A stretch of 56,075 nt of DNA, filler included, from Dirinaria sp. TL-2023a (lineage: Eukaryota): assembly GCA_051941275.1 (NCBI GenBank). It is 5 parts of 5 records of this genome, joined end to end, with 100 filler letters (N's around TTAATTAATTAA, not from the genome) between each part and the next. Parts side by side here need not be neighbours in the genome. Positions count along the whole stretch, not along the records: positions 44,955 to 56,075 come from JAVEBF010000874.1; 4 more parts are not named here. One strand, given 5' to 3'. The translations under genes and the position numbers were made by a program. The notes below the pieces were generated by a model, which ran no database searches, was not told the DNA's origin, and saw nothing but the letters and a program-made list of their open reading frames with translations. Shown piece after piece: positions 18,527 to 56,075 of this stretch. Numbering within the stretch: position 1 is the stretch's first letter; each line of letters opens with the position of its first letter.

Positions 18527-19340
18527 CGATGGTAATGCTTCTGGAAACAGTGTTAAAATAAGAGATGACAGACTCCTGAGCTTTGTCGGGATTGGAGAGA
18601 GACTATATAAAATGACATGGTGCCAGCATAGGTAGATTGAAAGCAAACACAAAACAAATGGTCCTTCACGATTGAGAAGAATTTGATGAAGCAAATAGTA
18701 GAAGGCGCAAGGCATTTGTTTCCCATGGCAACAGTTTTATTCTCATGCTTTCATCCAATCTTTTAGCCACACCTACGGATCATACCAGTGCCAAAAGAGG
18801 AAACCATCCTAATAAGCTTAATGCACATAGGACAACATATCCAGAAGTCTTGTAAATTGCCATGATTATGCAGGTGAAACAGTCAGTGATTGCTACCTTA
18901 TATTTCATCGGCGCTCTTTGAACTGTAAAATGTAATAATGTTTGGATGCTTGGGTAGTAGATTCCGGAGTGAGTTTTCAGATCGAAAAGATTATGGATGT
19001 GGGAGAATTCCGCATTTTGAGCTGTTTGAGTCATTTGTTGCAAGCGGTAAATGCGAGTAATTGTTGTTAAGAAAGAGATAGCAGACCTTTCTCGATGGGA
19101 ACCCTCGGAAGCCTAACGCGGCTGGAAAGAGCTAGCGTTTCGGTTCAACTTCGGCTATCATAATTGCCCGACTTTCTCTACTCAACTACCACAGTCCAGC
19201 CAGTAGGTTAAGCCTAAAAACATCATTGGATGGCCTTTTGATTCTCTGCCTCTATTATCTGAGAACGAGTTCTGGTTCCGGCCATGCTCTCCATACGCAT
19301 ACATCCAAGGACTCATTGTGTTCCCTGAATCACTCAAATA

Positions 19341-22181: not shown

Positions 22182-22405
22182 ATGCTACTACTACTCACTC
22201 TACCTTACCTATGTATGATTCTTTTGGGCGGGGCGAGGCGTTTCTACCTTACTAGGAGAGGGCAGTCGTATACCCTCACTACTTCTTTATCTTTCCGGTA
22301 AAATTGAGAAAGCTTTATTTTTTTTTTTTTTTTTTTTTTTCTTTCCTGGGACAATGGTTTGTTGAAAGACTCAATCCCCCATCTATATACACCAATATCC
22401 CTACC

Positions 22406-30540: not shown

Positions 30541-33086
30541 CTGGCTTCCATACTTGGAAAAGGTCTTGATGTAAGTAGACCTTTGATCTTGACACGCACG
30601 TGTATTTTTCTGGAATGTGCACCCCACACGCGCGTTGTGCTAGGCGAAGCCGCCTGATCTCATACGGCTCAATGCACGGAGCAAAGGGGTATTCCCGTAC
30701 TTATATACATCCACTGACTTCTGTAGCTCCACGACTCGCCCATCATTGTGGACGATTCGGTGGACGTGGCCGACACAGTGGCGCTAGCACCTATCGGTGA
30801 GCACGACGAAGCCTTGTCCGCTAAGGCTGGTTACGAGACAGTTTTACTGTCTATGTCAACAGCAAAATCAAGGGCAAGCAACGCAAAAGTCACGAACTCA
30901 GCTGGTACGTAACACTTTAACATATGCACGTCAGGACAAATACAATCGATGATGTTGAAAACAACAATAGACTGATGATAGCACCAGGACCCATTGCCAG
31001 ACGACGATCGCGGACCACTGGCAGTATCAGCGATTATGAGAGTGCCAGATCTCTGCATGAAGAGATGTACCTTGCACACCCTTCCTCCGACTATTCCGAT
31101 TCGCGGGTTCGAGGTGGTCCAGTGACCTACCATCGCCAGGCAGATCAGCTGTCGTATGCAGCCAACTCGTTGTACGAGCCTCGTGCGCTTTCTGAGATGC
31201 CGCCGTCAACAGTACCTGATACTGGGCCTCGAAATCTTCCAGAAGTAACTTCATACACCCCTAATCAAGGTCCGCAAGGATCTCAGATCTACCTATACAT
31301 TCAGACTCCATACGACCTCGCAGAGTTTCCGCTGAACATAAGCTTGATGTTTGCCACCAGAAGCTGCACTCCCACTCTTGACCGATTACAGTCCCGCGGT
31401 ACAAATTACCAGTACCTACTCGCAGCCGAGGTCCCACCGCACTCGTCTACCGGCTGGACGAGTCCATGTGTACCTGTGGGTCTGCAGGCTCGGCACGCTT
31501 CTGGCGTTGATGCTGGAACGGCAGACGTGGGCTCCTTCTTTTATACAGATTGCGTACAATCATCGAGTCGCGGGTCCCCCCCGAATTGGTCAAGAAAGAG
31601 GAATACCTCAGAAGAACCAGAGCTTTCACTACCAGTGAAACGGACGGCAAACCAGCGTTTGCCAAGCTCTTCGATAAATTGTGCAGCAAGCCCATACGCG
31701 TCCGCCCACAATGGGGGCTACTCCTACTCCTCACAGCCAGCCAACTCAGTCTACGCTCCGAGCAACCTCAGATCACCTTCCGCTCTTCAAGTTTCGAGCT
31801 CCTCACCCAGCACACAGGGCGTGCGGAGTAGCCTTGAGAGGTCATCGTATCATGTCAACACAGCATCTTCGCGATCTTCGGCTTGGGGTTCCCCTTTCGT
31901 CTCTACGGCTGCAAGGCAAACAACGCAAAGTCCGGCACTTTCGAGTACTTCCTCGCGGTTTCAATCCTTTGATTCTCCTAGTATAGCCAACCCTCCGCTG
32001 ATCCGGACGTCCACATTGCAACCATCACACAGTTCTTCGGCTGTCGCAGTGGGTGGACTGTACCCATACGACAATAAAGCCATCCTCAAAATCAATGGGA
32101 ACTTGGACTCCATGGCGGACGGCTGGTCCAATGAGGAGTGGGTTGCTAAGAGGCGTCTTGTTCAATTCTGGAGATCACAGAACGGCAATACCATCGACGC
32201 GGATTTCGATGCCGCACAGGCCGACAGTCCACCTAAAGGCGGCATTTACGTCAGCTGTATATGGTGGGCAGAGCGACGTGAATGCTACGTGACCAGCGTA
32301 GACACCATCCACCTTCTAGAGTCTCTTGTGGGAATGCGATTTCCGGTAGAAGAGAAGAATCGCATTCGCCGCAATCTGGAAGGTTTCCGGCCAACCACCG
32401 TTTCCAAAGGCAAGACAGACAGCGAAGATTTCTTCTCCATCATCATGGGATTCTCCGAGCCAAAACCCAGGAACATTGAGAAAGACGTCAAAGTCTTTCC
32501 ATGGAAGATTCTTGCTCACGCGCTTAAGAAAATCTTCGGGAAATACGTTGGTATCCCCAAGTAGAGACAGCAGCCGCTACATTGCGCTAATGACCTCTAG
32601 TCCGTGAGCTACTCGTCGACCGCGGGCGCCATGATCACACCCAGAAGCTCAACTCATGATGGGTACCCCGAGCCCAATAATACCCGCCCGACGTTCTCCT
32701 CCCGATCAACCTCCGATTCCTCCTCCAGCACATACACCGCATATAACACGCTGCCTACCACTATGTCGCCTCACGCCGCGTCGCACCCCACGGCCACATT
32801 TCCGGCATCTTACGGGGGGGAAGCGTCGTCCTACAGCGTCTCCGCCCCTGACCTGCCATATACATATAGCCTACCCACACTGCCGGGACCATACGCGTCA
32901 CAGGATCAAAACTATACATCAGCTGCTGCGCAGATGCCTTCTGCGAGTATGGCTGGCCGACCCTCATGGGACCTGGCCGCGTACATGAACACCACCACCT
33001 CCCCGATACAGGGCAATACGTGGGGGCATAATAGTATATCGGCGCACGTGGAGAGAGATGGAACCGGTGTTAAATTAATGCCGTGA
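30541..33086 (+). CDS. medA: Developmental transcriptional regulator Medusa (MedA/ACON-3/REN1 family); introns 30571-30726, 30905-30981, 32547-32600; first in-frame AUG at 30853, candidate CUG start at 30541
   Basis: Conserved C-terminal domain KAILKINGNLDSMADGWSNEEWVAKRRLVQF...YVTSVDTIHLLESLV...VEEKNRIRRNLEGFRP.TVSK...IMGFSEPKPRNIEKDVKVFPWKILAHALKKIFGKY/SVSYSSTA; the start position is uncertain. Confidence 0.93.
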
Positions 33087-33731: not shown

Positions 33732-34772
33732 GATATGGGAAGGGGATAGACTTACAGAGGCCGCCGGCCCAGAAATTGATGGCTGGCGCCGAGAGCGAGG
33801 TGTGCCTCGCAAAGAAGCGGCTGATGATGTCGTACGAGCCCCACCAGAAGAAGAAGAATGAGCGGAAGAGCAAGGTTGCGCAGAGGCCGTGGTAGATGCC
33901 TCGGATTCCGTGGATGCGGTACTAGGAAAGCAGTATTAGCTTTTTGCTTGCTTGCTTTCTTATTTGATTCGAAGAGGGACTGAGGGGGGCAAGAGGACCG
34001 TACAATCTTGCGGCAGCAGTCAATCGGCCCGCTGTAGAGTCGTTTGCTCCTGTCGACCGCGTACTGGATCTGCAGACGGGCTTTGATGTGCTCGACCGGT
34101 GCCGCGATAAAGCTCACGGTACTTCCGGCCATGACGCCCGCTACGGCGTGGCCGATGGCGGGGAGCTTTTTCTTCTCCCGCCTGGCTTCCTCTGTCACTT
34201 GCTCGGCCCGGGAGGCTGTAGACGAAGAAGATGGCGGCGGTAGCAGCGAAGGCTTGGAGAAGAAGACCTTCTCAAGCAGGATGCGCCGGTAGAAGGTCAG
34301 GCTGCCGAGCATGACGGAGTCCATGAACATCCATCCTACCAAGGGAGGCGTGGCGCCTTTGTACAGGCCTCGCACACCCTCCTTTCGAACCGTCTGCAAG
34401 AAGCAGTCGATCGGACCGGTGAATTGCGCTTTCGGGGTCGTCTGCAGCCGGACTTTGATCGTATCAAACCTTCGGATTGAGGGTTCAGCGTAAGGTCCAA
34501 ACGCGATTTCGGGGGAGAGGGACTAGTTAGGGGAGTGTCGCTTACGGATGGCCAACTGAGCACACACACAGCCAGAATCAACGATTGGATTTATATTTCA
34601 ATATCCTCGGGATCTTGCACACACCGCTCAATTTCGCGATCCCGGAAAATACACCCGCCACGAAGCCCTTGTAGTCGCCAGCACTCCGGACCGGTTGCGC
34701 GGGTCCCACTGTTCCATGGCTCTTTGCTTCTTTACCTGAGCTGGCACTTGCTGGGTTAGGCACCGTGGACAT
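33732..34772 (-). CDS. Mitochondrial carrier family protein (carnitine/acylcarnitine- or amino-acid-carrier-like); 3' end cut by the contig edge; 10-nt microexon 34546-34555
   Basis: GFVAGVFSGIAKLS/VGHP/FDTIKVRLQT (Px[D/E]xxKxR signature), EGVRGLYKGATPPLVGW, APVEHIKARLQ, FWAGGL. Confidence 0.92.
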
Positions 34773-38024: not shown

Positions 38025-39854
38025 ATGCCTAGGTCAGTAATCCCACGATTCGTATCCAATTGATCTTTGACCGCTCATGGACGCAGAGAGATCATCACTA
38101 TACAGGCTGGCCAATGCGGCAATAGCAGTGAGTTGCGGTCATTCTTCATACGCCGAAGAATCTAAAGCAAAGGCACACTGCAATAGAGGTCTAACACTAC
38201 TTATAGTCGGAAGTCAATTCTGGCAGCAACTATGTCAGGAGCATGGTATCAGCCAAGATGGAAACCTCGAAGAATTTGCGACAGAAGGAGGAGATAGGAA
38301 GGATGTGTTCTTCTATCAGGTTTGACCTAGGCCGTCAATAGCATTCGGCGGGGTCTTAACTCATGTACAGAGTGATGATACGCGATATATTCCACGAGCC
38401 ATACTGCTGGATCTAGAGCCTAGAGTGAGGAGACACCGCTGCAGATGCTTAGCAAGCCATCCGTGCCAATCACTGCTTTCTAACGACTTTAGGTCATTCA
38501 AGGCATACAGAATGGACCGTACAAAAATATATACAATCCCGAAAACATCTTCGTTGGATCTCAGGGCAGTGGCGCCGCCAATAACTGGGGAGCTGGTTAT
38601 TCGGCGGGTGAGAAAGTCCAAGAGGAAGTATTCGACATGATTGATCGAGAAGCGGATGGGAGTGACTCATTAGAAGTAACATTGAGAGTCAACCTTCAAG
38701 AGACAGTATCACTAACAAGCGTAATCAGGGGTTCATGTTACTGCACTCCATAGCTGGAGGTACTGGATCTGGGCTAGGAAGTTATATCTTGGAGCGGATG
38801 AACGATCGTTTCCCAAAAAAGTTGATACAGACCTACTCAGTCTTCCCAGACACACAAGGAGGAGGAGATGTGGTGGTGCATCCTTACAATAGCCTGCTTG
38901 CATTACGGCGCCTGACGCAGAACGCCGATTCCGTGGTAAGCACCAGGATGTACCGGCGTGGAGCGTCCTTGCTAAACGCGGTCTTAAGGTGGTTTTGGAC
39001 AATGGCGCTCTGTCAAAGATCGCAGCGGATCGGCTACACGTGCAGGAGCCGTCGTTTCAGCAGACAAACCAGCTTGTGGGTTGGAGTGACCAATTTCGCG
39101 TATTCCAATTAAGGGTCTATAGGTCTCAACCGTCATGTCCGCGAGCACGACTACGCTTCGATACCCTGGCTACATGCATAACGATCTTGTTGGCATTGTA
39201 GCTTCTCTGATTCCTACGCCACGTTGCCATTTCCTTATGACGTCTTATACACCTTTCACAGGTCATAATGTCGAGCAAGCCAAGATGGTCCGAAAGACGA
39301 CTGTTTTGGATGTTATGCGGAGATTGTTGCAGCCAAAGAATCGAATGGTGTACACGCAGCCGAGCAAAAGCAGCTGCTATATAAGCATATTGAACATCAT
39401 TCAAGGAGAAGCGGATCCGACCGAGGTAAGGACCAGACCCTTGCTTAGATCCCTAGAGGTCACTAATCCGCGTTTTCAGGTGCACAAGTCTCTCCTTCGA
39501 ATTCGAGAGCATCGACCGGCTACATTCATACCCTGGGGCCCCGCTTCGATCCAGGTCGCCTTGGCCAAAAAATCTCCATATCTTCCAAACACTCATCGTG
39601 TGTCCGGCCTGATGTTGGCCAATCACACATCCGTCGCTACGCTTTTTAAACGCATCGTTGTTCAGTATGACAAGCTAAGGAAACGAAACGCTTTCCTGGA
39701 TGGATATAAGAAAGAAACGCCCTTCGCCAATGGACTCCAGGAATTTGACGAGGCAAGAGCTGTGGTGGCAGACCTGATCGCAGAATATGAAGAAGCGGAG
39801 ACGGAAGCATACCTTGACCCTGATAAAGGCAAGGAGAAAGTTGAAGGCTCTTGA
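38025..39854 (+). CDS. mipA: Gamma-tubulin; multi-exon
   Basis: [118 protein letters not shown]. Confidence 0.98.
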
Positions 39855-40989: not shown

Positions 40990-42579
40990 GCGCCGATTCC
41001 GGCACCATCGCTCACGCTGTTGTTCCCACGGAGTTGTTCAGGCAGCATTACTTTCTCATCGATACCCCCCTCCTGCCACCTCGCGGAAGTTAAGATCCTA
41101 CGAGTCGAGCATGGCGATAGTTCTGGTAGACTCGGCATTCGGAGATTGGCGGACCTTATTGAATATGCATACGAAGAGCTTGCAATACACGTTGTTAGGG
41201 CGCGTGCGGTTGTGGTAATGTGGATGTTCTAGCATTGGCTCAAACGTCTCCCTACTTCATAGTAATCAAGCTTTGTTTACTGTGCTTGGTGCAATTTCAT
41301 TGATGCTCATTTTCCCTGATCACGAACCGGCTAAGCCGGGGTTGCCAATACCCAAGCGCTAGCCATTTATCAATCTTGCGATACCGGCGCTTAGGTAGGT
41401 ACTGATGAAATGCACCTCGTCATCATTTCATTTCCACCACTTTCTTTTGAGTGATTCGACTATGGTCATAACTATCACACCTTGGGACATCGAGTACAAT
41501 ATGCAGCTCATCGTGAAATCGGCGCTTTCTTGATATAGAATCGAGATCCAAGTGCTCTATGCTGACATGCGGCGGGCCCTACGATACTCTACCGTGCCTC
41601 TGCGCCTACCAGAGGTAAGCAGTGGAACGTGCACTGCAGGAAGCGAGAGTCATGTATTAGTAGCAGTGAAGAGGCTCAAGTTCCTAGAATAATCATCATA
41701 AACCTAAAGGTAATGTTAATGATAGTAGTACCAAGGTTGACCCCGCACTCGCCCGTTGAACTCCGGCTGCGGAGCTTTCCAATTGTAGATTATTTTAGGG
41801 GGGCTGTGGGAGGGGAAAGTCAAAAGGCTGAGGTGTGTGCAGTGGTGCACCAGTGCACTTAGTCTGAACGCACCAGCTGGTGATGGCTTGGCTCCTTGGC
41901 TGGGCGTTAAATTTAGAAAGCGAACAGGTGATGCCAAGAAACAGCCAAGGGAACCGCCAAGCACAGTCAGCGCCTCGCACTCAAGCCAAGAGCGCGTAAC
42001 GAGTAACGAGTAACAAACGGCCATCGAAACATCCTTCAGAGAACACGATGACCTTACGATTCTTCTTTTTCCAGCACAACAGAACACTACTCCTGTCCCT
42101 GCAGGCGCTTACCTTCTCACCTAAGTGATCTATGAATGGCTGCCTACCCTGCCACAACGATGTCATCCTTACAATGCGCAGGCGGCTCAAGCACAACTGT
42201 CCCTCCCAAGGCAGTTGAAGCAAATCCGTAATAGAGGCTCACTGGGCCCTTGACGTTTCATCTCTTTCTTCATTCCCACTTCTCTCTGTCATGATCTATG
42301 CTCAATAGACGGTTTCCCTTTTCCTTCTGTTTCTCAATTGTAATCCTGCATGTGGTCTCGATGTCTTGCTCGGGCTTTGGAGTTTTTGCAGGTTAGTACA
42401 TTCTGGGAAAAGAAGGCATCTATCTCAGCATAGCCATGATGCACCTTCAGCTTGGCCTTGCATAGGGTCGGTCTCGGAGTCATATCGCCAGACTACTTGA
42501 CCTCAAGGACTGCCCAAGGGATCGTCATGGTTGTTTACCAGAAACGGATTACTGACAATGCCAGCAGTTCTTTCACAGC

Positions 42580-44793
42580 ATGTCGAGTGCCCTTCTACTT
42601 TGGTCATTGATATCTTTCCTTTCTCCGCATCTAGTACTGGCTGGCCCACACTCTACGGCGTCTCTGTCTCCTTATCTCGCAAATGTCGTTCCTACCTGCG
42701 CTCACAGCTGCGTCGAATCCTTCATTGTCGAAAACTTTCATAGTACAGCCTGCCGTGATCAGGAAGATCTTACATGTCTGTGTACAAGCAAGAGCGCCGT
42801 GGGACTTACCCTTGGGGAAGGCGCTCTACAATGTACCGCGTCCCACTGTACCAACAACGTGCTGGAGCATACCGTCGATGTATATGAGATATGTGCGGAC
42901 GTTGAGAACGCGAGACCAATGACGCATGGCACCCTTACAGCGACAAAAGTCGATCAAACGACTATTGCTCACGTATCGCATACTCGAACAACTTTACCCC
43001 ACAGTCTTGGGCTGCATCGTCCTACACATACTGGTACTATATCTCCTAGCTCAGCAAATTCTTCACTTAGCCTGCCGACCGCTATCACTACCGCAACGAA
43101 ACCGAAAAGCTCAAAAAATCCTAAAAGCTTACCCAAAACGTCCGCCTCATCCACGAGCGCTTCTTTAACAGTATCGAAAGTAGCGCGTTCTTCTTCTAGT
43201 CTACCTTCCTCCACGACTCTCATCGCGTCTCCATCAACTTCTTCTGCGACTCCGAAACCACAGCCTGTCCTCACAAAACCTCAGATTGCAGGAGTCACCA
43301 TAGGTGGGGTAGCATCGGCAGCATTAGCGTTCGGCGTTTTATTCTGTTTGTTTTGCGTTCGACGGAAAGATAGGAAACGACGTAATAGTGGTTCTTCCTT
43401 TGGAGGCGACAAGGTATTACCGAGTCGCCCTAGCTCTCCTGGGTCCTCTGGCATGGCGTTCAGAGATTTAGAACATGGTGATCAGTCGGTGGCTTCCAGG
43501 GCAGCGCGGGAGCGCAGTGGCGCTAATCTCACGAACAGTGTGGCTCGGTGGAGCTTTTGGAGAAAGAGTACGAAGCCAGAGGAGATAGGCATTGCTCTAG
43601 GTCCTGAATCAGCGGCCGTACCTCCAGCAAGGGACGAGGGATTGCATGAGGAAGCTCCTGTCAGCGCTGCTAGTTATAGAACCACTTCTCAACTGCTGCC
43701 TGACAAGCCGAGATACTCCTTGTTTCCCCCGCCTTTGCGTGTTGTGAACCCGACTATAAGTCCGGTCAGTCCGCAGAGCCCCGACAGCGCCGAAACCCAC
43801 TTCACGGATGTTGCGGGCCAGAGGCCGTTGTCAAAACCAGCGCCTCGTGGCCGCAATGCCTACGACACGAGCCAGCCGTCACTGCAACAAGGGCCAAAAG
43901 CTGTTCGACCATCCAACTCAGATCCTTTTCTGGACTCTCACCCTGGCTCTCAAAGCTCGATACACTCGGAGTCCCGCCGCGACGTTGGTGCAACCCCTTT
44001 CATGCGGTCTTTACAGCCTATTCAAAGGCCGGTGCCTGCCCGCTCGCCACCTGGAGGGCAGCGACTTCAGCCAGCTACAGTTCGGTCGAGGCCTTCTTTG
44101 CAGATACCGAGTACATACGCAAACCGACCCACCTACGGGATTCCAGACGAGGAGAGTCATTTGCCTGACCAGAGCTGGGGCTCAGCTGCTAAAAGAAGAA
44201 ACTCATTCGCCCGGCCACAGACAAATTACTCGAATGCTTCAGACACCAGCTTCGAAGACGCTGGCGATGAAGACGGGTTGCCGCTCGTCCACCCTGTCCT
44301 TTCGCCGGTTGCAGAATCTCCCAAAGTCCGATCGCTACCTCGCGATCAGCGCGCTCCTACGATCCCCGATCCCCTTTACACCATACGCCGTCCTTCTCCT
44401 GAAAGCCCGACCCCTCGCCCGCCGATCAGAAACCCCCAGCGCGGCCGGGGCAGGAATGCCCCCAACCCCATCCCGCAGCCCGAAGTAGCCGAGCTCTACG
44501 GCAGCCCTGTATCACCGAAGGCTCAATGGGGAAGCGGCCATCCTCGATCCAAGGAATCCCTCAGGCGCGACAGCGACGGGACGACGCACAGCGCGAAATG
44601 GCAGATCTTGGTCAAGCCGGGGCTCGAGGGCGGCATCGAGGGTTCGCATTCGCCGCGAGAACAGCATCCGACGTCGTCGTCGCTGAGGTCCGGCAAGACG
44701 GGCGAGTCGAGGGTGAGCGATCAGAGCGAACGCTGGACCCCGGTCTTGACGCCCACGCGACGAGGGGACGATTTGAGACTTGATGTACGATAG
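42580..44793 (+). CDS. CFEM-domain single-pass membrane protein (signal peptide, 8-Cys CFEM, S/T-rich stalk, TM helix, Pro/Ser-rich cytoplasmic tail)
   Basis: VPTCAHSC...C.DQEDLTCLC...ALQCTASHC...YEIC; TM IAGVTIGGVASAALAFGVLFCLFCV followed by RRKDRKRR. Confidence 0.9.
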   Translation: MSSALLLWSLISFLSPHLVLAGPHSTASLSPYLANVVPTCAHSCVESFIVENFHSTACRDQEDLTCLCTSKSAVGLTLGEGALQCTASHCTNNVLEHTVDVYEICADVENARPMTHGTLTATKVDQTTIAHVSHTRTTLPHSLGLHRPTHTGTISPSSANSSLSLPTAITTATKPKSSKNPKSLPKTSASSTSASLTVSKVARSSSSLPSSTTLIASPSTSSATPKPQPVLTKPQIAGVTIGGVASAALAFGVLFCLFCVRRKDRKRRNSGSSFGGDKVLPSRPSSPGSSGMAFRDLEHGDQSVASRAARERSGANLTNSVARWSFWRKSTKPEEIGIALGPESAAVPPARDEGLHEEAPVSAASYRTTSQLLPDKPRYSLFPPPLRVVNPTISPVSPQSPDSAETHFTDVAGQRPLSKPAPRGRNAYDTSQPSLQQGPKAVRPSNSDPFLDSHPGSQSSIHSESRRDVGATPFMRSLQPIQRPVPARSPPGGQRLQPATVRSRPSLQIPSTYANRPTYGIPDEESHLPDQSWGSAAKRRNSFARPQTNYSNASDTSFEDAGDEDGLPLVHPVLSPVAESPKVRSLPRDQRAPTIPDPLYTIRRPSPESPTPRPPIRNPQRGRGRNAPNPIPQPEVAELYGSPVSPKAQWGSGHPRSKESLRRDSDGTTHSAKWQILVKPGLEGGIEGSHSPREQHPTSSSLRSGKTGESRVSDQSERWTPVLTPTRRGDDLRLDVR

Positions 44794-44954: not shown

Positions 44955-47900
44955 ACTGTGAGCATATGACATCGGCTACTGGAAAAGGACTGGCTTTTTC
45001 AACATGTCCTCATCCTAGATCTGATGGATGTGATGGAAGGCTGGCGGAAGTAGCACAGGCCCGGTCAGGCGTTAGTTGGCTTATTATTCCGCTTGGCATA
45101 ATGTTTCTCCCTCCATAACGTTTATGGCTTTCAACGATTTGACGATTTGAAGGTGGGTTTAAAAAGCCCAATCCGTGTCCATCGCGAACAGTCAATTCAT
45201 ACCATTGACACACGAAGGAGTCACTGAGCTGCACAATGTCGCGCTTGACTGTCGTACTCTTAGACTTGATTTAAATAATGCATAATCCGTGGGTGGTGCG
45301 GGAGGAGGAAAAATAATTGAGATTGAGGTAGATGTTGCTATGAGAATTGTAGATCTGAGAGCGTTCGCATGACGATCGAGCGAGATGGAGTTTGGATAGA
45401 AGCTGTAGAACTGGGTCAAGTCTGCGACGGTAAACTATTAATTGATCCTGGAAGTATGTATCGCCTCTGGGGAATGTGTAGCTCCTAAGGGACAACCCAT
45501 GCAAAAATTCGTTTAATTAAAATCTCCGCAATTTCACGTTCAATTGACAGAAAGCTGTCGTGGCTGAAGGTCAATAGTGGGTTTCCCGTTTCGCTCAGTA
45601 GCCAGCCATGGGCAATGCGTGAGGAGGTGACAGCATATGTACCTTGAAAAATTTTTGAATGACCCATCCATTCAGTTACAACCACCGCTTTACGATGAAC
45701 CATAGTAGACATAAAAGGAAGAAGCGAGGATCTGACTGCGTTTCAGTGAATTATCGTGTGTCTATCTATCATCGCCCGTCGAAGGAGAGAACGTCCGCAC
45801 TCGCTACGGGCAAGCGACTTAGCTGAAACCCATGCACGACGAGGGTTGCGCCATCCTCGAAGGAGGTAAATTAAGGGCCTTGAAGTCACCCTGGTGGGCA
45901 ACGTTATTCGTAACCTTCGGATATGGTTTGCTTCTGGGTGTATCGTTCGATAAATATGGATGGCTGGCTGCATGAATGGCCAGGAAGCCGTTCTCAAGCT
46001 TCTCTTACAATCACTACCCTTTATCTTTCTGCTGTCGAGCGCGCTTGAAATCAACGGAGTGATCCAGTAGCTCACTGTCGATGTGCGCTGAATCAATCAA
46101 TCCCCCTTTCGATCCTGGCGATATGAGGTCTATACCCCCTCCGCGATCGATCTAAACGCTAATCAGCCGCGTCGTCCAGGAAACCAGCAATTTTCCTGAC
46201 CTTAATCCACTGTCGAGGGAAGGGTCTTCTCCACGGAGGGAGCACGACTGCGCTATCTCTCCTCATACGAATAGATCTATCGACCAACGGATACTGCGAC
46301 CGTCTACTATCGAGTCAGCGTCCTGCAGGGTTGCATAGCCCAAGGCCTAAGTCGTTCACTTACCGAAACAGTCCAGACTTGTAGGCACCTGACAGAAGAC
46401 CTATTACACATGCTGTACCCAAGTACACTTTATTGGCCCAGACAATACCGTCTCTCCTACATCTCTCGTAATCAGGCGAAGACATCACGGCAGTTTGAAG
46501 GCTATAGGCGAATGTCTTGGACATATAAAATGAAAAAAATCACTCGAACATTTTGGATGCTGTGAGTTGATTTGAAAGAGCCATAGAGGCATGGCTAATC
46601 GGCGGAGGTAGCTGTGGTATCACGCAAATGTTGAGAGTTCAACGACTTTGGATTGTACTGCCGTCCGTCCACCGATTCTCCGCGTCCGTGTTGGCACCCG
46701 ATGTAATGATGGCGCTTTATGAATCGCGCAGCACACATCAAAGGATAAGAGAGCTTTGACCTACCTTTTCGACATCTTCCAAAGTCTGGGATGCGGCCAA
46801 TTGCGTGTTCCTATGGACTGAAGGCTAGAGTTTCCTTAAGAGTCAGGCTTGCTCGCTTGGTCAACCGTAGAGGAGCCTCGGTCCGAGGTAAGCGGCAGCA
46901 TTATTAGCCCGGCTCCCGGGGAACCGGCGCGGCATTCTTGTCCTCCGACCACCAGCATCATCAAAGCTCCAACAGCATCAGGAAAATACTGTACAGCCAG
47001 GTGACAGCCCCGATTATTACATCCATGGGCCAGAAAGCATTGTCTCCTACAGTCCTACAGTAATATTAATTCTCAGGCACGCAAGATATTTCGACCTTCA
47101 TCCGGCGACTCTTTGGTGCTTCACCAAGGATGGACCTTGCCCCGCTAAACCTTCCACAGTCTTCTAGTTGTAGCGGCTATCGTCAGCGCCATCGAGAGCC
47201 AATGCCAGAAATTTGATCAATCACTGAAGCAGTGGCTGTCGCAGTGGCAGCTGTGCGAATCTGAATACGGAGCCTCTGGGAATTCATATCGTGGATGCGA
47301 GCGCTATACCTAGTAACTTAGCGTCATCGTTGCGGCCGAAAGAACGCGGGAATGAATTGACAGGTGGTTCCAGTGCTGGCGACGAGAAATATTGGTATAG
47401 TGCTCTCATGCTGAATTCCAACTTTTCTGGAATCTGTGATCCTGATTATCCATCTCTGGGATTACTAGGAAGACTTCAAGCTTACCCCCAGAAGGTCTCT
47501 TACGTACTGCGCCCAATAATTTGGGTCGCTTCACCACGGTTCGGTGCGCAAGTGCACACACTGCCGCCTGCCAATGCCCAATGTAGCCAAGGAAGCTTGT
47601 GTATATCTTGGTGTTCCTCGTACCTGGTACCTGGGAAAGTTTATCGCCTGAATCACCTGCTGAGCTGCGGGTGGAAGAGGGTCCTAGCTCTTCGTGTTCG
47701 GCTGCTACTACTATTCTGGAGATAAGTCCCGCCTAAGGTGTGTATGATTGGAACTACTGACTTGCAGCGGTAGTAAGGAAGAGAGGCTGGTTATAGACGA
47801 GCCGAGATTTGGTCCCGGCCTGTCGGACTTAGGGACTGTTGGTTTCCCCGGCGCTGATAACCGCTAGATAGCCGCTAGTGATTGTGGCTACGATGCTCAC

Positions 47901-48866
47901 CACTGACCATTCGATCGGAAGCTTCTTACCCCACGTTTGCCACGATACCACTCGCTAGCCGCATGGTTGACACGGCTTGCAATTTGTCTTTCTGTCTTAT
48001 ACCTGTGTAGCCCACGGGCCTCCTTAAACTATGCTTCTCTTCTTCGCCGTATACGAGTCCCAAGCTCCTTGCTGGCAGCCGCTTCATGCTATTTCAGCCT
48101 CGTGTTTGAAGCCGTGGCTGACATCGCCGACCTTTCGGCCTCCGAGGTGCTGCTCTAGCCTCAAGTCATGAAGTCACAGCTGTCACTCGTGTTGCTTCTT
48201 TCGCGTAAAGATGTATCAGTCTGCTTCTACTTTCTTGTTCCGCTCTGGCTTCAAACGAGTCGTGTCGTAAGGTTCAGCAACGCACTCTAATCCCTTGCAA
48301 CAGGGACTGAGGTTTGCTGAAGCTGTTCGTTCACTTAGTACTTGACCGTAAGACTAACACCAGTCAGGAGAAAGCATCTGCATTAGATCTTGAGCGCGCG
48401 GATGCCAGAAGACTAATGGAGAGTGGCGTAAATTCGTACCTCAGAAACTTGAGGCCATCCAACTATGAAGCTCTTCGTATTCGGATGCGAACATGTAGAT
48501 GCTATGCGGTAGGATGCTCGCGAATTTTCCATTCACAAGCGGTGGCTTGTGATTGTATTACACCTCAATGGTGCATATTGATGTCTTTCATTCTCCTCCA
48601 GCAAATACCTCCCTTGTTTGACATAGTGTCATCAACGAGCACTTTGATCGTCTCGTTTGGGAGCTCATACCATAGCCGCACCGCAGAACAAATTAGTTTG
48701 TGAAGGCCTTGCTATCCAGTCTCTACGAGTGTATATATATGTCGAGCAATCCCCAACTCTCCTAAATCATTCTGCCAAGTACGAAGTTCCATTTGCACAT
48801 TTACATCAATAGCTCAGCGGCGTTCCAATTGCAATTTTCCATAAAGTCGTTTCAGTGGCAGCAAAA

Positions 48867-51800
48867 ATGTCCTACAGCACTACTATCCGCGCTTTGGTTA
48901 CGGCCTTGAAGAAGATTCCTAGCTTCTCGTCGCCCGACTACATCAATCGATTGCATGACAAAGCTCGCCACAGTCCAAACATTGGCGTCTTCTTTAACTC
49001 TCTTGTATCGTTTCCGACATTTGGACCCGATGCTGATAGCCTGATCATCGACAATGTCGATGCATCAGCTTATTTGACCCTCCTAGCGGAAGCAACCGCT
49101 GCTCAGGCCCTCTCAGATTTGGATCCTTCGGTAGATGGTCACAACTTGAGGAGCTGTGCCAATCAGGTAGCGTCTCTGTCAAATTCGCATGCGAACAAAG
49201 AGGACTTACAACGTTACAGCCAAACGCTCAAATTTCAAATGGCACTCTTATCACGAATTTGACCTCACTATTCTATGGAGAATACATCAACACGTATCTA
49301 CGGTCAATTGGATCGCCAGATCTCCATACTCTCTCGACACAACCTGGCCTCGCAGATGCATTTTCCGCGCAGCTTCAGGTCCCTCAATTCGTTCAAGGCG
49401 AAGTATACACTGATATGGCGGCGGCCGGCGACCACAAGTTCAGCCTGTCCCTGCTCTTTGCCTGCGACTATCTCCATCATGGCCCAGGCCAGATTCCCAG
49501 TGTAGACGCAGACTATGCTTCTGCTCCTAGCTCCACCGTCGTCGACACGTGGACACAACAGCTGTCGCAGAACCCCAAAGTAACCATGCCAGACGTCGTC
49601 GCATTTGTTCGAAGGCGGCGTCTATCGTATGCGCAATTACAGACAGCGGGCATGTCAAGCCCATGCCCGTAAGTAGGATTGCGCGAAACGTATTTGGCAC
49701 CTCGATCTCCGCTAATCCCACTGCGATGGCGAAACAATTTGGATTACCTTCTGCTGCTTCGGCCAAGGATTTCTCCAGCTCCCTCCAATCTGCGTTGAAC
49801 GATCTCCAGTCGACAGACGTGGACCAGTGGAAGAGTATCGCCCAACAAAATCTGTTACTTTGGAACAATAATGCGACGAAATGGCAAAGTGCTGTCGGCT
49901 CAATGGTAGAACAGTCAACTTCCACAGTTAAAGATATCTCGAATCAGTTTGGTGAAGGTTTTGTCATCGGTCTGACCGCGGGTCTTGAGGATCATAAAAC
50001 GTTTCAGAGGACGACCATCAGTGGTCAAGCGGTTGCTGATTGGATCAACGAGGGTATACGCCGCGAAAGTAGTAAATTTCTGTTATCACGCTGACTATCA
50101 CACAGGTTACCAAAATTACGCTTCCCTTTTCAATGGTAACGCTCCGAGTGTGACGAGTGTCTCGACCTACAACACGGATGGCCCCGTGCACAGCTGCTTT
50201 GTAGCAGGTACACAAGTCACTCTTGCTGATCGGTCAATCGCCATTGAGGAATTGACGGAAGGTACACGCATCCTCACCCGGGCAGACTCTCATGAATTTG
50301 GGACTGTTTCCGACGAAGAGGTTGTGAATCAATTGAATTTGCCCGTGTTGGTTGGAATCAGTGTGTATACCCTCCTAAATTGTCAGGAAGCTGGGTTCTG
50401 ATCTAGCCGTTTTCTAGATGATGATGAGCCGTTCTTCACTCCTGGTCACGTTTTCCACACTACTACTGGTCTCCGAGCTGTCGAGCCCAGCATTGCCCGC
50501 CAAGAGAATTCTTGGCTCGATGTGGGCATTCTAGGAGAGGGCCATGTTGTATTGAAGCTTGGGCGCGACGGCACGTCTTACGATCATATCGAGATCAAGC
50601 GCATCCGTATCGTCAAATCCGACGTGAAGGAAGTTTTATGGGGTCCACTTACGTGAGGGACAACGCAGCTATCACGCCAACGGCTACCTTGTTGCAGTCA
50701 ATTATCCAGAGGTAAGCATGTTGAAAGCGTAGCCTCCAGCGCCTAACGTCGACTAGATAACTGTCAAATCGATTGCAAGAGCTATCGCAAAGGTGCCTCG
50801 AGCTCCGAGAATCCGCATGTTGCAAAATCTAAAGGAGTTGAAGCCTCTCTTTCAGAAATTCGGCGTGAACGCTATGTCAGATGCTCTCGAGCGGGAACTC
50901 AGCGGGAAACGAGCCCGCAAGAACTCAAAATCAATTAGACCCAAGAAAGATCGTCAAACTAACATTAGACATGCCAAACGGACCTTCAATCTCCTCCCAA
51001 GCGCGCAGAGTGCAACCCAACAGCAACAACACCTCCCACAGCTGAGTATCCATGAAGGCATTGTCCGATTAGATAATGACGTAGAGCCTCGTGCAGCTGT
51101 TGGCGCAGCCAGTCGTACAGTGCAATGGTCTCGCAAACTTCCCAAAAGGCAATACGAACACGGTTACGTTGAGCTCAGAGATCATGGCATGTCAGGTGCT
51201 GGAGCAATACTGATCAACCAGAATGCGGACCAGGCGACGATGCCAACCGACGATAATGCCCACATTATTCCATTCAACGCAGTAAAGGCCAACGTGACGT
51301 TGAGCGATAGTACAGTGCAGACGCCACTGCAACATACTCAGGTCACCAAGAAGGGTAGGTCAACATGTCCCCATCAGACACATCTATGCTTACTCTTACC
51401 TGGAAGTGAACGCTACTCCTTTACCAGGCCTACCAGTCTCTAAATTTACAAAGGTACCTGGTCTCCCGAATTTGCCCGGTTTACAACAAGTGCCAAGTGT
51501 CCTCCTTGCGTCTGTACCATCGTCATCGGCGCCAACCGCAACCGCGCCAAATTTGACCGCTTCTGCCACTCCGATACCCACAGTGCCTTCGGCATCACCA
51601 GTACCCAGTCTTATCGACGGCCAAGATTATTACAGTATGACGCTTGATAAAGCTGTGTGGGCGCCTGGTCAGACAATGACCTCACCATCGTCGTCTGTGC
51701 CATTCGGAATGGTCGCTTTCGCAACATACCACAGTGGCGGCGCAGGTGGTTACTCCATGGGTATTCTGACAGTGCCGATTCTGGACCAGCTCCTTGCAGC

Positions 51801-54800
51801 CATCAATCAAATCGACGGAAGCGCCCCAGGTTCCACGCCCCTCAAGAGCTTGTATTCAAGTGAAATCACTCTTGACGATGATGGAAACATGATGGGCGAC
51901 GTCAAATTCGACCAAGCAGCCTTAGTGTCTCAATATGCGGACCAAAACACTACGCAAAATCCACCCGTGTTTGGCCTTACTTTCAACAACGCATTGAAGA
52001 GTAGCATTACGCTGCCCATTTTGTTTTCCCGGATCCAAGTCTCTGTCGACGCCATGTTCATCAACGCGACCGGTGTAGCGTACGAATTCGACCCTAATAT
52101 GCTTGGCAATCTGGGCAACAAGTAAGTGATCGATTGGCTGTCTTTAGGCATTCCAGTGACCTAAAATGACAGACATTTTATGACCGGTAATGCTACTGTC
52201 TCTTCAGCTACAGTACAGACAAGACTGGCAAATTCCCAAGCACTTGTTGGAAAGGTAACTACGGATAAGGCTCCCAACAGCCTTGCTTCCAGTCCTGCTC
52301 CTAGCGCCGCTCCCAGTCCCGCTCTGGTCACAAAGCTACTAGCAACCGCCACAACGCCGTCAGTTGATAGTCTAATCTCTGGAGTACAGAAGACGTATGA
52401 TGATGCCTTGGTAAGATAAAGCATCTCGCCGTAGCTTTCAAACTAGAACGACTTCTATACTAGCACAGCCAGATACACACAATCTCAGGTGGTCTGCTAC
52501 AGAAAACCATGCTATATCATATGAACAGTAATGATCGCACCAATTTTCTTCAACTGAAACAGCCTACAGATCTCGATCCTAGCCTCGGATCTGGGCTGGC
52601 GACATCCCTCCATAACTGGATTCAGAATACCTACGCCGTAGCTTTCGTATCTTATATGATCAGCCAAACCAGCGATAAAGACCAGCAAACTTGGAGACAG
52701 CACTTTACCAACGACGAAAAGGGTAAGGTCTGGTATTGGTTCTCCGGACAGGTAAGAGCAAGCCTGCCGTTGGGTGTCCAGCCAAGGTTGACGTTCTCAT
52801 CACAGGGTTCCACATGTCTGTCACAGTCGAAAGAATACAATGACCTGAATTCAGTATGTGCACAAATTGCCATGAAAACAACCTACTTCAGCTCTACAAC
52901 AATGAGCACCTATTACAACAACGGCGCATTTTGGGCTCAGCAGATGTACCAGCAGATGTCAACGCCAGTCAATGGGATCAATCCTCTTCAATCGCTTCTC
53001 AATCACCAAGTTGTCGGGGTAAGCTCCGATCACGAAACCTTCGCCGCTTACTCCACCTTCTAATACCTCTGCAGACTACCAACGTAATCAATATGCGCTG
53101 CAATATCTTAAATACCTTGGATCCAAGCGGCAACTATGCCAATCTCATTTTCAATGATATTTTGGCCCTCAGCGTGGCAAACACCAATGGCACTCCCTAT
53201 ATTGGACTTGGTCCCAATGATCCAAACCCTGACCAAAGAAGTAAATTCGTCACCGATGCCATGCGCGACCTGATAGTCGAAATCTTGAGTGGCGCAGGCT
53301 CTCAGCTTTCGTGGGATGCAGACGTTCAAACATCGCTCCAGGCTGACTTGGAGCAACTAGAAAAGGATGAGGGATTGAGCATGTCTAATAGCGCTCAGGA
53401 TCGAGCCAATGCTTTAACTGCTAAAGCAGTATTATTGGTTCAATCGATCATAGGCGTCATGCCAGCGCTTGCAGACCTTGCTAAACACGGCTCGGTCCTC
53501 TTTAAGTCGATGACGGGATGGAAAAAAGCCACTGCGGCTTACGATTGGTGTGTTGCAAGGCTACCAACTGAGGAATCAAAGACTGGTATAGCATTTAAGG
53601 GGGTAATGACAGCCGTCATGGTACGTTAAAAGGCACTGTCACTTTGGTCGTGGGGAGGCTAATAGACCGCAACTTGACAGGTCGGGTTCACTGTTGCTAG
53701 CGCCGTCAAGTCCTTTATGGATTTCGATATACTCAGTCCCGACCAGCAGTCTATTGTGATATTATCGACTCTGCAGATCGTCGTAGACTCCCTCAAGGGC
53801 GCAAAGGAAATATACGATCGCTACAAGAAATACAAAAACCCCGACGCCGGCACCAAACCCGACACCCCTCAGCAAGTCAAAGATGCCGCGGTGCTGGACG
53901 AAAAGCTAGATACCGCAGTGGCTCAATCGCCGCCTGTTCTCGATGACGCCGCAAAGAAGATCACTCCGGCGGACCCACCCGATCTGGCACTGAAGAACTC
54001 TGTCGCAAGAACCATCAGCTCTGAAGGTATGCCCAAAGATTCGCCAATTACGGATGAAGTCAAAAACAACGTCAAGATCAAGGAAACTCCGAAGAAACCA
54101 ATCGGGCTAAATGGAAAAGCGGCTGCGGAGACGTTCTCCGTGACTGACCAGGCGATCAAAGGTATGGGTGCGGCTGTCGGTATCGGGATGACTGTGTCTA
54201 TGGCTCTGGACCTGAAGCACCACTGGGGAGATATGAATACACTTGGCCAAGCACTGAACACAATACAAGTAATCACGACAGGACTGTCTGTCTTGTGCGA
54301 TCTCGGAGAGATCCTCGCCGAGAGCGCCGTGGAGTTCTCACTTTTCGCAGTATCGGAAGCGGTCCTCACTGCTATACCCTTTGTGGGAGCTGTACTGGCT
54401 GTTGTTGGCATCGTGGTGATGATAGTGATGGAGTTCGAAGACACCCAGAATCCGCCAGTGCCGCCCCCGACTCCCGTCGAATCATTCATCTCCGGGCCCG
54501 GGTAAGTCCCTATCAACGATCTCACGGATGCTCCACGCAAGCATGCTGACTGGAAAAAAACGTAGACGCGCCCTCATCGCGACGTGGAACTCCCCTCCCA
54601 AAGCCATACTCCACTACGAGGTCCAACCGACCCTGCGAGCGGGCGGCAAAGACCAAGAATGGAAAGTCTGGATCAACAACCCCACCAAAGAGGTCGTTAC
54701 ACTCAACAGCACAAGCATCAACTTCAATACCGGCGACGATTCCACCTGTATCTTCACCAACCTTTCCCTGGCGCTCTCAACCGCATCTAACGCCCCCTCC

Positions 54801-55133
54801 ACCGAAAATACAGTGTGGGTCGGCGACACAGATACTTACATCGGCAGCCTGCGCCCCACGCCGAGTACAGAGACGGTTACTTCCTGGGATATCAATATTA
54901 CCGGGGTGCCGATGACGGAAATCAGCGCCTCGAATCCAGACGCGCAGGTTGTGCCGATGGGTAGGTTTGAGAACCCTACGGGACTGCTGTATGTCCCCGC
55001 AGGGGGACACTTTGAGGCGATAGTGTTTGCCACGGCGGGACCGGCGCAGGGACCGATGACGGTGACGGTGACGGAGACATTCGACAATGGCGACAAGGCG
55101 AGGGCCTTGTTTAGTGTTACTATCACCGCTTGA
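48867..55133 (+). CDS. Large (~1,870 aa) Hint-domain protein with a C-terminal hydrophobic helical region and a beta-rich domain; 12 predicted introns; one +1 frameshift near 50634-50637 (sequencing error or recent pseudogenisation)
   Basis: Consecutive same-strand ORFs join through GT-AG introns 49167-49219, 49627-49676 (alternative 49669-49778), 50054-50105, 50361-50417, 50712-50756, 51355-51406, 52122-52172, 52411-52463, 52752-52805, 53019-53074, 53621-53680 and 54502-54565. Spliced length minus one base is 1873 codons. TATA-like tatatatat near 48732. Confidence 0.8.
50195..50702 (+). other. Hint (Hedgehog/intein) autoprocessing domain, ~150 aa, no homing endonuclease
   Basis: Block A S|CFVAGTQVTLAD.....IEEL; block B FFTPGHVF (TxxH); blocks F/G VYGVHLREGQRSYHANGYLVAVN|Y. 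Confidence 0.88.
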
Positions 55134-56075
55134 GGAGAGTGGTTTGTTTCCAGGCTGTAGGTATCTTACCGAGCGTCTTACTACCACCACACCACGTTCA
55201 CTTTGAACTGCCCCACCGCCACTCACTACCTGCTTCTTTCTTCTGCTATTCCTTTTTTTCTCTTTCTTTTTTCTCCCGTAATCTCTCAATGCTTCTCTCA
55301 CTTATCCCCCTCTCCGCCCCCCCAAGACCAAACCCCAAAAATATCTAGCCTTTAACAATGTACCTACTTGCCAATGACATTTTCATGATGAATCAGTCCA
55401 TCGCCACTTCACTAAACCGCTATTCCTTACTCCCATCCATAACCTCATCGTCCGCAAGCCTCACAACAAACCCCTCCCGCCTTCTGCCATTACCCTTAGG
55501 GCAGAGTAATATCCTCCCACAATAAAAAATTCAATCCAAACCAAAACCCGAACTGTCTCGTCGTTGCATCCTCGAGATACGGTTCAGGATACAGCGGAAA
55601 GAAATTTTTTCAGCTACGGGATGAAGGGGCTTGATTTTTGGGGTGTTGTATGTTGTGGATTTGAGGTTATGAGTTTTGCTTTTGCTGGGGAAGGGGTTGG
55701 TAGGGACAAGTTGCGGTTTAAGGTGGTGAGGTGGTGAGGAAGGGGGATTTGGGGTGTGGATATTAGAGATTAAGCCTAAGAAGGAAGCAGTTAGCGCCGT
55801 AAGTTTTTATAGCTCCTATGTGGCGAGAAGATTGGGCAGGTGAGATTGGTGCAATCGGGGACTGAGATGGTGATGAGAATATTATGTAGAGTTATCAGGA
55901 TTAGACAAATGTGCGAAGATGAGATCAAGGGATGATTTATACTTCAGATCTACATCCATCTCCTCGAATTACAAATGCCAAGAGCATTCTACAGCTCACA
56001 TACTCTACAGATTCATTGCCTTGCGCAGCAACTCCAGCCCCAACCTTCAACAATCCCCCTCCCCCTCCACATCGC

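Follow-up and report, generated by a model that had tools for sequence, protein, structure and literature searches.

A giant fungal protein family built around a putative self-cleaving Hint domain, with a copy frameshifted as assembled in Dirinaria

What does the one large gene at the end of a 56,075-nucleotide (nt) stretch of DNA from Dirinaria sp. TL-2023a (assembly GCA_051941275.1) encode: an intein in an ordinary host, a toxin-like protein that cuts itself, or something else? This whole stretch, hereafter the window, consists of five pieces of ~11.1 kb with runs of N between them, and the gene lies in the last one (44955-56075). A first-pass annotation had read it as a giant Hint-domain protein with toxin-like architecture, in which Hint cleavage activates a membrane-inserting C-terminal module. 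The explanation that we find best overall, and to which we give a little more than an even chance, is that the gene belongs to a family of giant fungal Hint proteins that would cleave themselves at the N-terminal side of the Hint and keep the remainder anchored in a membrane, and that the window holds a copy that is frameshifted as assembled. To our knowledge, the fungal Hint domains described so far are those of selfish inteins, of Vint proteins and of a Hog gene in Glomeromycota. Judged from its sequences, the present family is a fourth kind, with at least 308 sequence clusters and the Hint always in the same giant protein.

An open-frame scan placed the ATG at 48867 and the TGA stop at 55131-55133 on the plus strand, exactly at the limits first proposed for the gene. 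We built the gene model (Table 1) from homologue alignments: by tblastn, a protein of Xylographa parallela (P0001) spans the gene in nine segments, and the window product is 44.6% identical to it over 1,818 aligned residues. The exons add up to 5,670 nt, or ~1,889 codons. All 11 introns are GT-AG, measure 45-64 nt and contain a branch-point-like motif; every exon junction is gap-free in alignments with the full-length relatives P0001, P0004 and P0005, and a metagenome homologue (L012) shares seven of the intron positions (after amino acids (aa) 100, 378, 463, 562, 1175, 1246 and 1428). The acceptor of intron 5, at 51406, is unusual (AAG); using the alternative CAG at 51427 would drop 7 residues from a poorly conserved linker. 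Two constructions were rejected along the way. A minimum-intron model had four wrong junctions, removed parts of the Hint and bridged the frameshifts with fake introns, and a candidate intron at 49669-49778 was dropped after the tblastn alignment. The idea that many open reading frames (ORFs) splice into a single protein holds as far as one 12-exon gene is concerned; two of the supposed splices are in fact 1-nt frameshifts, which had been missed. That this is one gene and not several is borne out by the homologues, which more than 30 annotated fungal genomes carry as single proteins of 1,700-2,080 aa.

As assembled, the copy in the window is broken by these two 1-nt frameshifts. At break 1 (49604-49607) the tblastn segments overlap across the change of frame. 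A 298-aa ORF fragment of a close relative (P0183), 86.5% identical over aa 100-388, reads through the site without interruption (...DVVAFCSKAASIV... / ...MPDVVAFCSKAASIV..., with AFCSK at the site), and since it is continuous there, the window is short of one T. Stops in frame 0 (50625-50627) and in frame 2 (50654-50656) confine break 2 to 26 nt; because the homologues read ...EVYGVHLREG... at this place, the window has one T too many. In the relatives both sites lie within a single exon. A literal translation of the window ends at 49670-49672, ~20 codons past break 1. A -1 break is followed by a +1 break, so only the stretch of 306 codons that they enclose is out of frame and the exonic length is still a multiple of three; aside from the two breaks, there are zero stops in the exons.

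The Hint domain extends from Cys1 (codon 50195-50197) to a terminal Asn (codon 50700-50702), precisely the limits that it had been given at first. Its motif A is CFVAGTQV and its motif B FFTPGHVFH, with the signature TPGH; the C-terminal motif is YGVHLREGQRSYHANGYLVAVN, followed by YPEIT, and the domain itself closes with YHANGYLVAVN, then YPE, with Tyr at position +1. A family Hint profile made from ten relatives matched 2lwy, a solved A-type bacterial intein-like (BIL) domain, over motifs A and B with E=9.4e-5, and HMMER aligned motif B to TFDHPFY of 2lwy; the C-terminal half of the family Hint gave no alignment to 2lwy. Together with Cys1 and TPGH, this match upholds the assignment to the Hint superfamily, and both Hint pieces of the window match the family profile with 99% probability. 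Pfam Hint_2 matched 19 of 26 further members at E<=0.01 and reached the gathering score in 4 of the 26, always within the first ~35 positions of the model. Matches to inteins were weak (6zgq with E=0.43 for the family profile, TIGR01445 with E=0.07), one window exon matched Vint with E=0.065, and profile searches gave neither a Hog (PF01079) match at E<=1 nor a Hedgehog structure at E<=10.

In an alignment of 48 relatives, Cys1 is present in 35 rows, the block-B Thr in 37 and the block-B His in 34 (Gln in 10), while the His of YHANG and the terminal Asn are each found in 44, Tyr at +1 in 34 and a Pro two positions past the Asn in 47. Position +1 is Thr in one row and Cys or Ser in none, and the penultimate Hint residue is Val or Leu, not His. 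By these motifs (Cys1, TxxH, a terminal Asn and then Tyr) the domain is predicted to be of the active type. The Hint is full length in 44 of the 48 rows, and the 2 rows without it resemble faulty gene models. Identity to the window, measured over 24 homologues in blocks of 50 aa, lies at 0.40-0.55 for the Hint plus the next helix, versus 0.13-0.36 for other parts. Being both the best conserved part and full length in nearly all rows, the Hint is probably functional and not a selfish insert. A domesticated functional part, neither a selfish intein nor the release device of a polymorphic toxin, is the likeliest description of it that the sequences suggest.

The rows that lack Cys1 are largely the same as those that lack the block-B His. 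In a FastTree phylogeny of 27 named members and the window (28 rows), the rows of this kind fall in a single well-supported clade of 9, comprising two copies from Aspergillus melleus, A. karnatakaensis, Penicillium hispanicum, Fusarium decemcellulare, two Xylaria, Xylona and Psora. Their joint loss is what would be expected if both residues act together in the other members. As this clade keeps the whole architecture of the protein, cleavage appears dispensable for the core function of the family, and the proposal that Hint cleavage is what activates the protein found no support.

Outside the Hint, we predicted alpha and beta regions from the hydrophobic periodicity of the alignment columns, and the resulting layout of helical regions, beta-rich regions and linkers fits these profiles and the composition in the way that had been outlined at first pass. 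The layout looks fixed throughout the family: a helical N-domain of ~400 aa, the active-type Hint and a 53-aa amphipathic segment, then two beta-rich domains with Pro-rich linkers and a helical region of ~340 aa, and finally two to three conserved hydrophobic helices and a beta-rich tail of ~190 aa. The N-domain shows 13-28% identity per 50-aa block across the 24 homologues, is alpha-periodic in 57-76% of windows and has no match to a known family in Pfam. It starts without a hydrophobic N-terminus or signal peptide, as the first-pass annotation had said, since no 19-aa window reaches a Kyte-Doolittle (KD) value of 1.6 or more before aa 1360. A search for stand-alone N-domain proteins gave one exon fragment of a close relative and nothing else. 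The segment after the Hint is exactly 53 aa long in 43 of the 48 aligned relatives. It shows alpha periodicity and, in its first helix, a strong amphipathic character (hydrophobic moment 0.75-0.87). Next comes a polybasic stretch (50907-51020, KRARKNSKSIRPKKDRQTNIRHAKR) with 12 K/R versus 1 D/E, which the window shares with Xylographa, Galerina, Neonectria and Monosporascus, and which is not present in the remaining family; it could be an element resembling a nuclear localisation signal or one that binds acidic lipids. The beta domain after it shows beta periodicity in 63% of windows. A comparison of the Hint with this domain by hhalign was negative for an internal repeat (probability 0.3%).

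Identity to the window across the 24 homologues is lowest in the Pro/Ser-rich linker (aa 751-850). The conserved helical region contains the motifs LYHM..DR..F, YA.AF and WYWFSGQG..CLS.S.EYNDLN, and alpha periodicity reaches 53-89% of windows over aa 1076-1480. Then comes the membrane module, the exon of which is 93% identical to a fragment from a close relative (P0041). Its three hydrophobic segments, centred at aa ~1431, ~1598 and ~1671, have mean KD values of 1.50, 1.89 and 2.79, and a KD of 1.6 is reached by 44%, 72% and 96% of 25 sequences, respectively, so the hydrophobic region that had been noticed near the C-terminus is conserved. The whole length of the protein can be aligned across the 24 homologues, and N- and C-terminal modules are therefore not swapped, contrary to what had been suspected; Hint_2 is moreover the one domain recognised in the 26 further members. 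Pfam searches of the window exons, of P0001-P0003 and of these 26 members returned the Hint_2 motif alone, plus one low-complexity match. NCBIfam, PADLOC and PHROGs gave nothing meaningful, in the PDB, profiles of the entire family and of the part after the Hint found the BIL motif and two matches at chance level, and the ESM Atlas gave no usable match to whole P0001. The earlier statement that the flanks match no housekeeping gene can be extended to other known families in Pfam and in the PDB profile searches.

A word-based search had yielded three and then ten full-length relatives. Using the post-Hint 1,197 residues of P0001 as HMMER query, and counting cluster representatives, we obtained 308 at E<=1e-3, 195 at 1e-10 and 54 at 1e-30. 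Uncharacterised homologues thus exist, as had been anticipated. All 35 named representatives are fungal and are labelled hypothetical or uncharacterised, a few of them automatically 'Hint domain-containing protein'; the distribution is patchy, as predicted, and the bacterial branch that had been envisaged did not appear among them. Members were found in Lecanoromycetes (Xylographa, Psora), Eurotiomycetes (Aspergillus, Penicillium, Exophiala), Sordariomycetes (Fusarium, Neonectria, Podospora, Xylaria, Monosporascus and others), Dothideomycetes, Xylonomycetes and Orbiliomycetes, and in the basidiomycetes Galerina and Filobasidium (two). Matches of ~430 aa that looked like stand-alone C-terminal proteins were rejected as exon fragments that arose from prokaryote-style gene calling in metagenomes; one such cluster includes a 1,837-aa Filobasidium protein.

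In the tree, the window is sister to two Xylographa proteins with a support of 100, which indicates that its copy comes from a fungus related to Xylographa (Lecanoromycetes). Elsewhere the gene tree conflicts with the species tree: Galerina, Filobasidium and Neonectria adjoin the lichen fungi, and A. melleus groups with Xylaria curta. Since the gene tree cuts across the species tree, either old paralogy with loss or transfer has to be assumed. The GC content at third codon positions is 0.545 in the gene versus 0.495-0.535 in the other genes of the window, and a composition test found no signature of repeat-induced point mutation in it; with a codon composition like that of its neighbours and no such signature, there is no sign of foreign origin.

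How would such a protein work? In inteins and Hedgehog, the roles of Cys1 and of the block-B Thr and His are established, according to passages of PMC4031507. By analogy, in intact members Cys409 would attack the preceding peptide bond in an N-to-S acyl shift, assisted by the Thr and His of TPGH, and water or another nucleophile would resolve the thioester. The ~408-aa cytosolic N-domain would then be freed from the Hint and the C-terminal remainder, and this remainder would stay anchored to a membrane through its C-terminal hydrophobic helices. The invariant Asn at the end of the Hint, with a Tyr after it, may permit a second, C-terminal cut. One known fate of Hint thioesters is hydrolysis. 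We weighed three rivals to this mechanism.

Similarity to known Hint systems sets the frame for this comparison. The fungal inteins of PRP8, VMA1 and others likewise belong to the Hint superfamily, lie in nuclear genes of fungi and have Cys1, TxxH and a terminal Asn, but the family has Tyr at +1 instead of Cys, Ser or Thr, no penultimate His, flanks that belong to no known or housekeeping protein, a Hint that is better conserved than its host, no credible Hint-free member in the 48 rows and no endonuclease insert; the first four of these differences lead us to set an ordinary intein aside. The A-type BIL domain 2lwy, the best solved match of the family profile and its only significant one, comes nearer. 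It shares with the family Cys1, TxxH, the C-terminal Asn and a non-nucleophilic +1 residue, and in both cases the Hint sits in non-housekeeping proteins. In the sections of PMC4031507 that treat them, A-type BILs favour cleavage over splicing, splice or cleave without a +1 nucleophile and ligate by aminolysis, and a Magnetospirillum BIL also carries Tyr+1; passages of PMC8616854 describe how BIL2 of Tetrahymena forms an isopeptide bond to substrate lysines. One could argue that the family Hint cuts at both ends, by way of the Cys1 thioester and of a cyclisation of the terminal Asn, and that its flanks are re-ligated by aminolysis, or the N-domain passed to the lysine of another protein. The frequent terminal Asn and Tyr+1 would agree with this, and the Cys1-less clade, which holds the N- and C-parts in one chain, is compatible with a joined mature protein. 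From the bacterial BILs the family differs in being fungal, in having Val or Leu at the place of the penultimate His and in the position of its Hint, which lies one fifth into an intracellular protein of 1,900 aa, ahead of the 53-aa helical segment with its constant length. The Val or Leu also speaks against excision. Moreover, the Cys1-less clade retains both the Asn and the N-x-P motif, which may thus be structural, at most 2 of the 48 rows are without a Hint, both of them probably faulty models, and a Hint that is more conserved than its flanks is the reverse of a mobile intein. Of the three rivals, excision of this type seems to us the least probable. A transfer as in Hedgehog, in which the hydroxyl of a lipid or sterol such as ergosterol, presented by the 53-aa segment as an analogue of the sterol-recognition region of Hedgehog, resolves the thioester and the N-domain leaves with a covalent membrane anchor, is nearly as improbable. 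In its favour, this segment, alpha-periodic and with its amphipathic first helix, is constant in length and part of the best-conserved stretch, and the polybasic stretch in the subclade of the window could bind acidic lipids. As in Hog proteins, a cargo domain stands at the N-terminus, the Hint has Cys1 and TxxH and N-terminal cleavage suffices, and conserved amphipathic helices come directly after the Hint; in Hedgehog, such a helix-loop-helix of peripheral-membrane helices directly after the Hint is necessary for cholesterol transfer, as stated in parts of PMC7242414. Within the family, an Asp, Cys or Asn stands 23 residues before the block-B Thr, in a conserved S-D-E motif whose S and E are invariant in the aligned sequences. 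We take this spacing to equal that of D46 and T69 in Hedgehog. Against a Hedgehog-like transfer stand the negative Hog and Hedgehog searches reported above, the lack of a signal peptide, given that Hedgehog processing is lumenal, and the 1,250 or so further residues after the helical segment, which Hog proteins do not have; the segment is also kept in the Cys1-less clade, so it must have a role unrelated to the thioester as well.

The toxin-like reading, which makes of the protein a pore-former, holds that an inhibitory N-domain is cut off by the Hint, whereupon the C-terminal module is set free to insert into membranes and form pores, in antagonism or regulated cell death. The executioners to compare are those of the colicin/VasX type and of the Bax/HeLo type, which are soluble until triggered. 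The active-type Hint and the conserved Gly/Ala-rich hydrophobic segments flanked by amphipathic helices are in line with it, and so are the hydrophobic helices that, with no signal peptide, must be handled post-translationally. Patchy distribution, conflict between gene and species tree, paralogues and frameshifted or split copies are typical of conflict genes, and an ORF with a HET domain lies near one locus. When aa 1056-1835 of P0001 were compared with the ESM Atlas, the clusters that came nearest consist of bacterial hypothetical proteins, and one of them carries VasX_N in 21% of its members; the scores (0.79-0.80) correspond to the chance level, as shuffled sequences reach this range a third of the time. 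We nevertheless regard a pore-former as unlikely. No toxin or pore-forming family was matched in Pfam, NCBIfam, PADLOC, PHROGs or the PDB, colicin- and VasX-like proteins included; the layout is uniform, with end domains that are not swapped, and no conserved partner, neighbour or immunity-like gene was found across 18 metagenome loci. The Cys1-less clade retains the membrane module, which means that cleavage is not a universal trigger, and the last hydrophobic segment (KD 2.8-2.9) resembles an ordinary transmembrane anchor. In polymorphic toxins, the PT-HINT domain lies between an N-terminal region and a C-terminal region that is thought to act after release. The family has its Hint between N- and C-terminal regions too, but it has no PT-HINT match in Pfam, the 1,300 aa at its C-terminus are conserved and do not resemble a cassette, and both an adjacent immunity gene and a secretion signal are missing. 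The claim of toxin-like architecture therefore could not be sustained.

Some of our own results count against a self-cleaving protein with an anchored remainder. The Hint_2 match of the window itself scores 21 bits versus a gathering score of 28.4 and covers motif A alone. Hydrophobic segments 1 and 2 are moderately hydrophobic and could be buried helices of a soluble bundle instead of transmembrane spans. With a clade that has lost Cys1 and kept everything else, release of the N-domain cannot be essential to everything that the family does. As for the frameshifts, the comparison with other genes of the window consists of a few long ORFs and is hence biased; both breaks lie in T runs of 3-4 nt, with no further lesion in 5.67 kb; and the exons are 86-93% identical to fragments from a close relative, a poorly conserved linker included. 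An intact gene with two base-calling errors fits these data equally well.

Are the frameshifts, then, lesions of the gene or errors of the assembly? We lean slightly towards real and recent lesions, that is, a pseudogene. The MGM1, gamma-tubulin, CFEM and DUF7082 ORFs of the window show canonical introns or long open frames and nothing else. Three of 18 independent metagenome loci (L003, L013 and L018) shift frame with too little room for an intron, and the Aspergillus niger homologue, annotated as a protein of 1,736 aa in 2 listed strains, is annotated in many others as adjacent proteins of 345 and 1,183 aa. The opposite view, that the organism has an intact gene and that base calling or assembly went wrong at two short T homopolymers, has in our estimate somewhat less than an even chance. 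Each break is a single-base length change of a T run, and the terminal branch of the window (0.66) is no longer than those of its neighbours, which adds to the uninterrupted exons and the high identity to a close relative already mentioned; a run of 3-4 T is nonetheless short for a homopolymer error, the other genes examined in the window are unbroken, and broken copies occur elsewhere in the family. Regarding these broken copies, L003 is 90-97% identical to a Fusarium oxysporum Fo47 protein on both sides of its break. The A. niger copy belongs to the clade with the dead Hint, and aa 345-481 are unannotated in the split version; the split may be a within-species polymorphism of presence and disruption or an annotation artefact.

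To place the family among published work, we searched the full text of papers with homologue locus tags and with names for Hint-domain proteins in fungi, and found no paper on it there; Hint_2/PF13403 as a search term led to the unrelated HINT2 gene alone. The closest precedent is that of Bürglin in 2008, who, in the passages concerned, notes that fungi have ORFs in which Hint motifs A and B occur outside inteins, Hog and BIL, and describes only the VWA-Hint (Vint) proteins (PMC2362128). Like these proteins of fungi and protists, the family has a eukaryotic Hint that is neither intein nor Hog and is recognised mainly by motifs A and B, but it lacks the VWA and Vwaint domains and differs in flanks, size and membrane tail. 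By its sequences, then, the family adds a variant, so far undescribed and of moderate interest, to the Hint autoprocessing proteins. The most interesting possibility would be Hedgehog-like transfer, suggested by the amphipathic segment of fixed length, with no homology behind it. There is a low probability, in our view, that fungi have in this family a cytosolic counterpart to Hedgehog autoprocessing, with the N-domain moved onto a lipid or sterol or, as in BIL2, onto another protein. If true, this would amount to a covalent targeting reaction in fungi that is independent of ATP (adenosine triphosphate). We know of such targeting so far only from metazoan Hedgehog and from a ciliate ubiquitin-like system. 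Because one clade has a dead Hint and the others a live one, the family is a natural experiment, and with members in tractable fungi (A. niger, Fusarium, Podospora), release, lipidation or activation can be tested directly. For the window itself the message is smaller: in the assembly its copy is broken, and no homology backs the toxin reading.

Table 1. Positions, along the whole window, of the Hint-protein gene, its parts and the other annotated genes
Feature	Position	Strand	Remarks
Whole gene	48867..55133	+	12 exons, 11 introns, two 1-nt frame breaks; conceptual product ~1,889 aa
N-terminal domain, aa 1-408	48867..50194	+	alpha-periodic; exon 1, exon 2 with break 1, start of exon 3
Frame break 1	49604..49608	+	one T missing from a T run (GCATTTGTTCG); frame 2 to 1 at ~aa 229/230, Cys codon lost
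Hint domain	50195..50702	+	Cys1 (aa 409) to terminal Asn (model aa 559); holds intron 50361-50417 and frame break 2
Frame break 2	50634..50637	+	extra T in a TTTT run; frame 2 to 0 between ...DVKEV and YGVHL..., inside the Hint
Post-Hint helical segment, model aa 560-612	50703..50906	+	YPE, intron 50712-50756, ITVKSIARAIAKV...KELKPLFQKFG...
Polybasic linker, aa 613-650, then beta-periodic domain, aa 651-750	50907..51320	+	near-invariant W..R and EHG
Pro/Ser-rich linker, aa 751-835	from 51321	+	poorly conserved; intron 51355-51406
Second beta-periodic domain, aa 836-1000	51628-52121	+	beta periodicity in 53% of windows
Ala/Ser/Pro linker exon	52173-52410	+	between introns 52122-52172 and 52411-52463
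Alpha-periodic conserved region, aa 1080-1417	52464..53587	+	introns 52752-52805 and 53019-53074
Membrane module	53588..54501	+	three hydrophobic segments; intron 53621-53680 inside
Hydrophobic segment 1, aa ~1418-1441	53588-53620 + 53681-53719	+	
Charged linker, aa ~1481-1580	53837-54136	+	
Hydrophobic segment 2, aa ~1588-1607	54158-54217	+	followed by an amphipathic helix
Hydrophobic segment 3, aa ~1652-1680	54350-54436	+	KD 2.87; followed by a PPVPPPTPVE motif
C-terminal beta-periodic domain, aa ~1702-1889	54566..55133	+	beta periodicity in 63% of windows
Introns 1-4	49167-49219; 50054-50105; 50361-50417; 50712-50756	+	
Introns 5-8	51355-51406; 52122-52172; 52411-52463; 52752-52805	+	
Introns 9-11	53019-53074; 53621-53680; 54502-54565	+	
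GH5 fragment	14983-15621	-	
MGM1-type dynamin	19329-22255		
DUF7082 protein	30921-32564		
Mitochondrial carrier	33752-34522	-	
Gamma-tubulin	~38100-39850		
CFEM membrane protein	42556-44793		745 aa, Ser/Pro-rich

Upstream of the gene, 44955-48866 contains no Pfam-recognisable ORF, no transfer RNA and no Rfam match, in agreement with the ~3.9 kb without a clear gene described before. The other four pieces of the window (1-44854) carry ordinary fungal genes. Around family members on the metagenome contigs, we came across several conspicuous ORFs. The HET-domain ORF mentioned above (L005:5975-6562, +) and a 625-aa ORF ending in WD40 repeats (L014:3513-5387, +) each lie a few kb upstream of a family member and are not conserved across loci. 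On another contig, an uninterrupted ORF of 2,115 aa (L015:3-6347, +) with a Peptidase_C70 domain (AvrRpt2-like cysteine protease, E=6e-19) is located ~3.6 kb upstream of the family member. Finally, the proteins listed under Neurospora sp. IMI 360204 (P0007) and Trichoderma evansii (P0008), genera from different orders, are 95% identical over 1,061 aligned positions, nearly all differences falling in one 38-aa gap, which suggests contamination, mislabelling or very recent transfer.

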